Shown here: positions 59,520-60,308 of the stretch, piece by piece
How positions within the stretch are numbered: the stretch's first letter is position 1
How the letters are laid out: each line of letters starts with the position of its first letter
From: an uncultured delta proteobacterium
GTDB lineage: Bacteria; Desulfobacterota; Desulfobacteria; Desulfobacterales; JAFDCJ01
Length of the DNA: 64,000 nucleotides
Assembly (NCBI GenBank): GCA_963769935.1
Contig: CAVYNY010000033.1
Span: 1 to 64,000, forward strand
Direction: 5' to 3'
Program-made: the position numbers and the translations under genes
The notes under the pieces: model-generated
What the model saw: only the letters and a program-made list of their open reading frames with translations
Databases searched by the model: none
Told to the model about the DNA's origin: nothing

Positions 59520-59696
59520 GGTCCCGGATCCTCTTGCTGAAGATCAAATGAATAACATTGGCAACATTAGAACTGAATATATCGATTATCGGCAATTATT
59601 CACAAAACTTAATACAAACTTGCAATATTTAATCCGGGTCTTAATCTGAAATAATTGCATTCTGAAAATTCAGATTCAAACAAAGGAGAAGCTAAA

Positions 59697-60017
59697 ATGA
59701 CAGAGCCCATTCGAATATCGGCAGAGGAAGCCCGTCAAAAAGTAAGTGCCGGGTCGGCCCTGCTTGTCTGTGCCTATGCGGATGCAGAAAAATTTAAAAA
59801 AAATCATCTGCAGGGCGCAATTTCACTGGACGATTTCAAGGCCCAACTCCCATCATTAAAAAAAGAACAGGAGATCATATTTTACTGAGGGTGAGACAAG
59901 GATGTAAGTGCTGTCGGTCAGGCAGAAAAACTATTAAAGGACGGATACCTAAATGTCGTGGCTCTGAGGGGCGGCGTCGCCGCCTGGAAAAATGCGGGGT
60001 ATCCGCTGGTAGGATAA
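59697..60017 (+). CDS. Rhodanese-like protein with two in-frame TGA codons (candidate double selenoprotein)
   Basis: AAGGAG RBS; ..HLQGAISL..EIIFY-TGA-G-TGA-DKDVSAVGQAEKLLKDGYLNVVALRGGVAAWKNAGYPLVG* in a single frame. Confidence 0.8.
59911..59925 (+). promoter_or_regulatory. Bacterial SECIS-like hairpin
   Basis: CTGTC-GGTCA-GGCAG; the loop starts 21 nt after the second TGA and has a GGT(C) apex like the E. coli fdhF SECIS. Confidence 0.6.
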
Positions 60018-60308
60018 ACTGTTGTGCCGAACATGGGGGCAAAACTTCAGTTAGGAGCTTCGCCCGGGAGGGAAGCTACTTGGGATTTGTATATGACCAG
60101 GAAAATGTGTTATGGCCATTTAAAACCCACCATTCCAACATTCCACCATTCTATTCCGGGTCAAAGGCAAACTCCGCCCCTGCGCGGTGAAGTCCTTCCT
60201 ATATCCAGAATCAAGTATCGAGCATCCAGCGTCGACCGAATAAGAACGCCGGTCTTGCGCTCACCCCTTCTTAAATATTTATGCGGGCTTATGCAACTTC
60301 AAGATCAA

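Follow-up and report, generated by a model that had tools for sequence, protein, structure and literature searches.

A rhodanese gene with two in-frame UGA codons and a single predicted SECIS hairpin in an uncultured delta proteobacterium: a very likely double selenoprotein of the UxU type

A short gene on the forward strand of the 64,000-nucleotide stretch of uncultured delta proteobacterial DNA analysed here (the window) is real and intact, and very likely encodes a double selenoprotein. Its predicted product is a rhodanese of the CxU family, whose members carry a selenocysteine (Sec) at the second position after the catalytic cysteine, and two of its codons, 64 and 66, are in-frame TGA codons. 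It is highly probable, in our assessment, that both are read as Sec by means of one hairpin; the resulting U-G-U loop would carry sulfane sulfur. A UxU 'rhodanese-related sulfurtransferase' selenoprotein was already predicted in 2007 from one metagenome (Zhang and Gladyshev, PMC1976440, Fig. 3A); the window gene belongs to the same U-x-U rhodanese selenoprotein type and is a further example of it. The present analysis adds three points: the gene apparently arose recently from within a group of CxU relatives, the catalytic position has switched repeatedly, and the first UGA lies far from the hairpin.

The open reading frame predicted with genetic code table 11 closes at the first TGA (59888), and the initial annotation proposed that this truncation hides a complete 106-amino-acid rhodanese. 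Frame, domain match and fold all agree with this proposal. When both TGA codons are read through, the frame extends from the ATG at 59697 to a TAG at 60015-60017 (Table 1), and its product matches the Pfam Rhodanese domain over residues 9-100 (PF00581; Bitscore: 41.7, gathering cut-off: 22.2; e-value: 1.6e-10). The fold predicted with Cys substituted for Sec has a mean pLDDT of 86.8, and its top Foldseek matches are all rhodanese domains. GlpE (1gmx; TM 0.79) and BH2092 (3nhv, 3o3w; TM 0.78) share this fold and the catalytic position, but are Cys enzymes without Sec, the loop of BH2092 reading C-W-G-P-A-C. In the alignment with solved rhodaneses, codon 64 falls in the column of the catalytic Cys, precisely as had been claimed for the first TGA, and alignment, predicted fold and Foldseek search concur on a rhodanese fold in which a Cys or Sec opens the active loop, here U-G-U-D-K-D-V-S. 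The protein consists of the single domain, has no N-terminal signal-like extension and is likely cytoplasmic, while its gene stands alone between opposite-strand genes in the window. Members of a well-supported clade of 83 rows carry Cys25 in place of the Asp of the D-x-R motif, a possible third redox residue.

Table 1. Positions of the rhodanese gene and its sequence features in the window
Feature	Position	Strand	Evidence
AGGAG resembling a Shine-Dalgarno site, 8 nt ahead of the start codon	59684..59688	+	Sequence
Single-domain rhodanese gene, 106 aa, two TGA codons	59697..60017	+	Pfam, predicted fold, Foldseek, homologues
Cys25 of the subfamily motif LLVCAY, at the Asp of the usual rhodanese D-x-R	59769..59771	+	Clade of 83 rows, SH-aLRT 99
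TGA at codon 64 (the first), in place of the catalytic Cys; likely Sec, derived from TGY in this lineage	59886..59888	+	Homologues, tree
Second TGA, codon 66, conserved Sec of the CxU family	59892..59894	+	TGA in 119 of 144 homologues
SECIS hairpin, 5-bp stem (one G-U pair), GGUCA loop	59911..59925	+	Covariation, comparative; lower synonymous divergence

The best NCBIfam match is NF041203 (rhodanese_LYCAU; e-value: 2.5e-15), with a Bitscore of 56.2 that lies below the cut-off of 115; four other LLVCAY/LLVCSY proteins score 51 to 67 bits, L031 87 and L022 133 bits. A table in PMC13188914 lists NF041203 as a predicted rhodanese-like domain protein 'form 3' with a CxU motif and one Sec, and a COG0607 'form 2', likewise CxU, is among the predictions of PMC9312934. 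This CxU form has the same fold, Sec at +2 from the catalytic Cys and the hairpin at the same position, but is listed with one Sec only, whereas the window protein falls in a separate LLVCAY clade with Cys25 and without a signal-like extension. A pair of neighbouring in-frame UGA codons within a single redox motif is likewise predicted for TsoB (NF045694; UxxxxU, rhodanese), for a Prx-like family with UxxU, and for NF041115 and FmdB UxxU (PMC13188914; PMC2398784, which reports the Prx-like UxxU). These differ in the wider spacing of their Sec residues and in their folds or fusions, and against the TsoB model the window protein scores 17.5 bits versus 805. No experiment on two UGA codons under one bacterial SECIS was found in the literature searched, subscription papers being mostly outside the search. 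As regards annotation, the databases hold such genes as fragments of 63 to 65 amino acids (104 of the 120 listed), one of them under the name 'ArsR family transcriptional regulator', and the table of a 2026 review gives the rhodanese family one Sec only.

The genes nearest to the window gene, which derive from the same genus and share 69-77% identity with it, encode C-A-U, with TGY at codon 64 and TGA at codon 66. Among the best 82 matches from a scan of 401 genomes of the phylum, 64 are CxU, eight UxU (including the window gene) and three CxC, while seven have another residue at position 66; three lower-ranked two-TGA matches, all UxU, were added on purpose and brought one CxU paralogue with them, giving 86 rows. 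Of 144 distinct homologues taken from genomes and not gapped at position 64, 119 have TGA as codon 66, and codon 64 of these 119 is TGC (54), TGT (53) or TGA (12), and nothing else. Each TGA of the window gene thus stands opposite Cys codons in relatives, namely TGY64 in 107 CxU genes and Cys66 in five CxC genes. The search for CxC, CxU and UxU homologues suggested in the initial annotation has recovered all three, with TGA or Cys at position 66. U-x-C forms are absent from the 25 homologues lacking TGA66, all of which have Cys64 (Fisher p 0.13, not significant). A metagenome scan for TGA-N3-TGA yielded, among the 120 matches listed, 114 in-frame UxU rhodaneses and six chance matches; because part of the hairpin is prescribed by the search pattern, which also disallows AGY at one codon, these rows give no frequency and were excluded from the covariation test described below. 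UxU is furthermore encountered in D-x-R subfamilies with signal-like N-termini. Where the 2007 prediction concerned one metagenome, the predicted UxU form turns out to be widespread in environmental DNA and not to form a single clade.

Some individual homologues diverge from this pattern. A close homologue in a genome of the same genus (L017:1504-1665; G020) has CGA (Arg) at the position of TGA66, an intact hairpin and an unmatched N-terminal half, and is likely decaying. Paralogous UxU and CxU genes are arranged in tandem, approximately 500 nt apart, in L250 (G364:C6:1399-2230), while the rhodanese encoded in L018:1480-1803 (G034) has a TGA at loop position +5 (C-M-G-E-R-U), another possible Sec position.

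To trace the history of codon 64, a careful tree was built from 41 rows of LLVCAY type, all genome-derived, after masking of the motif columns. In it, the window gene groups with the CxU gene L010 as its sister (support 100/85); both fall within a clade (100/99) whose three CxU genes come from the same genus, and the window gene sits on a branch of 0.24 compared to 0.055 for its sister. The seven UxU rows in this tree need five changes, two of which are forced by starred branches, and UxU monophyly is rejected (AU p 0.019). A quick tree of 177 rows, which is rough (approximately 100-104 columns, 86 of 174 forks open), requires 26 changes, nine of them forced. As the trees are unrooted, change counts cannot in general tell gain from loss; for the window gene, the simplest reading is that Sec64 would be a recent gain from TGY. 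The initial annotation treated both TGA codons as Sec codons, and both are indeed likely to encode Sec, but their roles have to be revised: judged from the homologues, codon 66 is the old, conserved Sec codon of the CxU family and the first TGA the new, derived one. Purifying selection acts on both sides of the TGA codons, with dN/dS values of 0.15 before and 0.12 after the TGA codons in 37 disjoint UxU pairs, and of 0.20 before and 0.16 after the TGA region in nine CxU pairs. The low values beyond the TGA codons indicate that the half of the gene downstream of these stops is translated.

In our proposal, SelB docked on the GGUCA loop would bring Sec-tRNA first to UGA64 and then, two codons further on, to UGA66, before the stem is unwound by the ribosome. 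With the hairpin pre-existing for UGA66, a single TGY-to-TGA change would be enough to create Sec64, and such a single-step gain would explain repeated gains. In the protein, Sec64 would accept one sulfur atom, with a persulfide, polysulfide or thiosulfate as the donor; its release or onward transfer would fall to Sec66, possibly via a transient Se-Se bond that is reset by a thiol reductant. This sulfane-sulfur carrier chemistry, with Sec64 taking and Sec66 resolving, possibly as a diselenide, is drawn from the fold and from general rhodanese chemistry, and we give it roughly even chances of being correct. The fuller scenario, in which Cys64 was converted to Sec many separate times, most recently here, one pre-existing SECIS, borrowed at a spacing longer than that found elsewhere in the genome, supports two successive SelB deliveries on a single ribosome and the U-x-U motif forms a working diselenide, is put forward tentatively and falls somewhat short of an even chance. 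A conserved neighbourhood or a hint at the substrate was not found over 96 loci, the largest cluster with UxU rows comprising five loci.

Both residues could also be Sec and serve a different chemistry, where U-x-U, with or without Cys25, constitutes a redox switch, a reductant of peroxide or selenium oxyanions, or a soft-metal(loid) site. This alternative shares the translation claim with the sulfur-carrier reading and differs from it in chemistry only. To our knowledge, classic sulfur transfer needs no two chalcogen residues one apart, which counts in favour of such a function, as do an active loop two residues longer than those of 6mxv and 1yt8 and a peroxiredoxin-like gene, named by eye, which adjoins the CxU gene in five of the 96 loci. 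The exclusively rhodanese character of the top Foldseek matches, on the other hand, speaks against such a function. Cdc25-type phosphatases and arsenate reductases have a C-x5-R loop, and the arginine of this loop is missing from U-G-U-D-K-D-V-S, while no recurrent arsenic or metal gene cluster is present among the neighbours of the 96 loci. A redox or metal-binding role is regarded as less likely than not.

For the translation of both codons, the hairpin is central. It is formed by CTGTC (59911-59915) and GGCAG (59921-59925) around the loop GGTCA (59916-59920). The initial annotation located it 21 and 27 nt after the TGA codons; the sequence is as it described, but these figures are the distances of the loop from the second and the first UGA, respectively, whereas the stem starts 16 and 22 nt downstream. 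The bSECIS description in PMC13188914 (loop of 3-9 nt with G in the first two places, stem of 4-16 bp, spacing of 16-37 nt; for background on the Escherichia coli SECIS see PMC8659212) accommodates the GGUCA loop, the five base pairs and both spacings. With an energy of approximately -6.1 to -7.5 kcal/mol, the hairpin is weak: 60-nt stretches starting at the first and second UGA fold with about -6.2 and -7.5 kcal/mol and 100 nt with -30.1 kcal/mol, relative to a bSECIS threshold of ≤ -7.5 and with stretches chosen here. Taken alone, the window hairpin is no better than shuffled sequences over the four stretches compared (z +0.82, +0.57, -1.21 and -0.64), and its support is as such comparative.

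This support comes from 111 dereplicated, genome-derived CxU and UxU genes aligned without gaps, where 96.9% of the 555 stem cells are paired and 83 double-sided changes are observed. None of 500 shuffles reached as high a covariation and slid controls pair in 24-55%, with the caveat that kin are not independent and that the helix was chosen from the same sequences. No consensus helix other than the 5-bp stem was found in this set. A stem of at least 5 bp occurs in 10 of 12 UxU and 95 of 106 CxU genes, and in one of 15 genes lacking TGA66. Synonymous divergence is furthermore lower within the hairpin (pS 0.20) than on either side of it (0.35 and 0.40) in the 37 disjoint UxU pairs. The hairpin occupies an identical position in CxU and UxU genes, and a second hairpin of at least 5 bp for the first UGA was found in only 1/12 and 2/103 UxU genes and in 3/106 CxU genes, so that both codons would have to depend on a single element. 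With both codons reproduced in contigs, the Sec genes present in the genome and TGA or Cys at position 66 of homologues, one SECIS for two UGA codons, as originally proposed, remains the best reading. In many genes (L237, L030 and others), the GGUCA loop has an alternative pairing partner in the UGACC that includes the second TGA codon, and the mean probability of this fold is approximately 0.3 in the UxU sets and 0.15 in CxU; this pairing is impossible in the window gene and may elsewhere follow from a conserved Pro.

The long spacing of 27 nt at the first UGA constitutes the weakest step in the double-Sec reading. In the other recognizable single-UGA selenoprotein genes of the genome, hand-picked from 35 candidates and judged by our own reading, the loop lies 16-23 nt from the UGA, a range that includes the second UGA of the window gene but not the first. 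UGA66 could accordingly encode Sec while UGA64, too far from the hairpin, is poorly read, acting mostly as a stop or being misread as Cys or Trp, and providing a selenium-dependent throttle on output. Besides the spacing, this possibility is favoured by the unmoved hairpin in the UxU genes and by the frequent C64/U64 switching on the tree, which suggests that residue 64 is not critical. Stems in the LLVCAY clade average 6.0 bp in UxU and 5.5 bp in CxU genes (p 0.02), a difference that is also counted towards it and that involves dependent kin and pattern-selected UxU rows. The spacing of 27 nt nevertheless lies inside the published range of 16-37 nt, and beyond the TGA codons UxU genes show dN/dS values no higher than those of CxU genes, which argues for a full-length product under selection. 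Whole clades moreover retain UxU, as in one fork of the 177-row tree where 16 of 17 rows are UxU, and the genome shows one tRNA with a UCA anticodon and one selB, with no dedicated system for inserting Cys at UGA seen. Poor reading of UGA64 is on balance improbable. CxU and UxU genes sharing 77% identity and the same hairpin provide a natural pair in which to ask whether one SECIS can serve two UGA codons six bases apart, and what Sec changes at the catalytic site of a rhodanese. Should the double-Sec reading hold, the CxU/UxU series would readily allow the limits of SECIS spacing and the origin of Sec codons to be tested.

Both TGA codons were further compared in eight sequencing runs, all as contigs with a depth below 5 or close to it rather than raw reads. 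The contig of X1, possibly the source sample, covers 59820-60150 with no differences and retains both codons, while X12, which belongs to another study, yields a contig over 59681-60018 that differs at 26 letters, is free of gaps and leaves both TGA codons unchanged. One X6 contig has 22 other letters, none listed at the TGA codons. The initial annotation called for confirmation of both codons in reads; these three contigs reproduce them, albeit at low depth. The X2 contig agrees as well, but includes just 25 letters before the first TGA and was left out as bridging; the X11 pieces start too close to count, and X8, X9 and X13 do not cover the codons, the contig of X13, the sole RNA run, spanning 59897-60017, beyond both. 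In contigs from two studies (X6 and X11), 205 nt are deleted (59669-59873), and with them the start of the gene and the greater part of its N-terminal half, suggesting that relatives can lose the gene.

These comparisons bear on the possibility that the first TGA arose by nonsense mutation or through erroneous sequencing, which would make this copy a young pseudogene of a CxU gene. Such an origin would fit the CxU identity of the nearest relatives, the indel-type breaks in the assembly (selA and EF-Tu-like matches in pieces), the deletion allele in relatives and the long terminal branch of the window gene. It is countered by the preservation of TGA-GGG-TGA in an unbroken frame in the X12 strain, 26 letters away, and of the codons in the X6 contig, 22 letters away. 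The window gene moreover shows dN/dS values of 0.10-0.15 relative to its four nearest CxU genes (L010, L011, L012 and L024), with synonymous sites near saturation, and codon 64 is never a stop or sense codon other than TGY or TGA in the 119 homologues with TGA66. The pseudogene or error reading is largely refuted and retains a very small probability.

The genome was searched for the Sec machinery, as the initial annotation had advised, and selB, tRNA-Sec and two selD genes were found over cut-off, together with a selA that is split in two pieces by one frameshift in the assembly, so that selA, selB, selC and selD are all represented. A single selB over cut-off and, with default settings, a single tRNA with a UCA anticodon are present; ARAGORN run with a relaxed threshold produced many false tRNAs, which were disregarded. 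The selA frameshift is located near 678985 (G000:C22:678107-679262; L001, L002) and is likely an assembly indel, given that EF-Tu-like matches on the same contig are likewise in pieces. Each selD gene (G000:C20:157619-158545 and C7:116160-117080; L005, L006) has one in-frame TGA. Four of five other UxU genomes tested also have selB and tRNA-Sec; in the fifth (G301; 660 contigs), neither was detected at the thresholds used. The notion of a genome-wide reading of UGA as Trp or Gly, with a loop such as W-G-W, could draw on C-x-W at the motif in 15 of 120 listed database proteins (P0002-P0015, P0050), which are likely gene calls made with TGA as Trp, but has a negligible probability, being refuted for the window genome by its stop codon use, with TGA closing 1069 of 2740 long ORFs as a normal stop, and opposed by position 66, which among the 144 DNA loci is TGA in 119 and Cys in five, and never Trp.

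In a paralogue screen of the genome, 35 of 275 candidates showed a TGA aligned with Cys; these include genes which we take, by eye, to be FdhA, HdrA, MvhD, MsrA, AhpD, a peroxiredoxin and other rhodanese-like genes. Another candidate selenoprotein, on the reverse strand near 293497 of G000:C9, has TGA opposite Cys in the motif LPGAN-U-GGCG, presumably RnfB-like, with a hairpin 16 nt downstream of the TGA. A paralogous C-S-U rhodanese (G000:C28:109143-109289) shares the hairpin (GTGCC CGTGT GGCAC) and its spacing. No convincing second double-UGA gene was recovered by a genome screen that misses short genes: six of 137 candidates have a hairpin, one being the window gene and the other five not protein-like. 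In G000:C11:285724-286876, a tRNA-Pyl (CUA) adjoins a match over cut-off to the C-terminal part of pylS (336 bits), and the genome thus likely encodes pyrrolysine besides selenocysteine.
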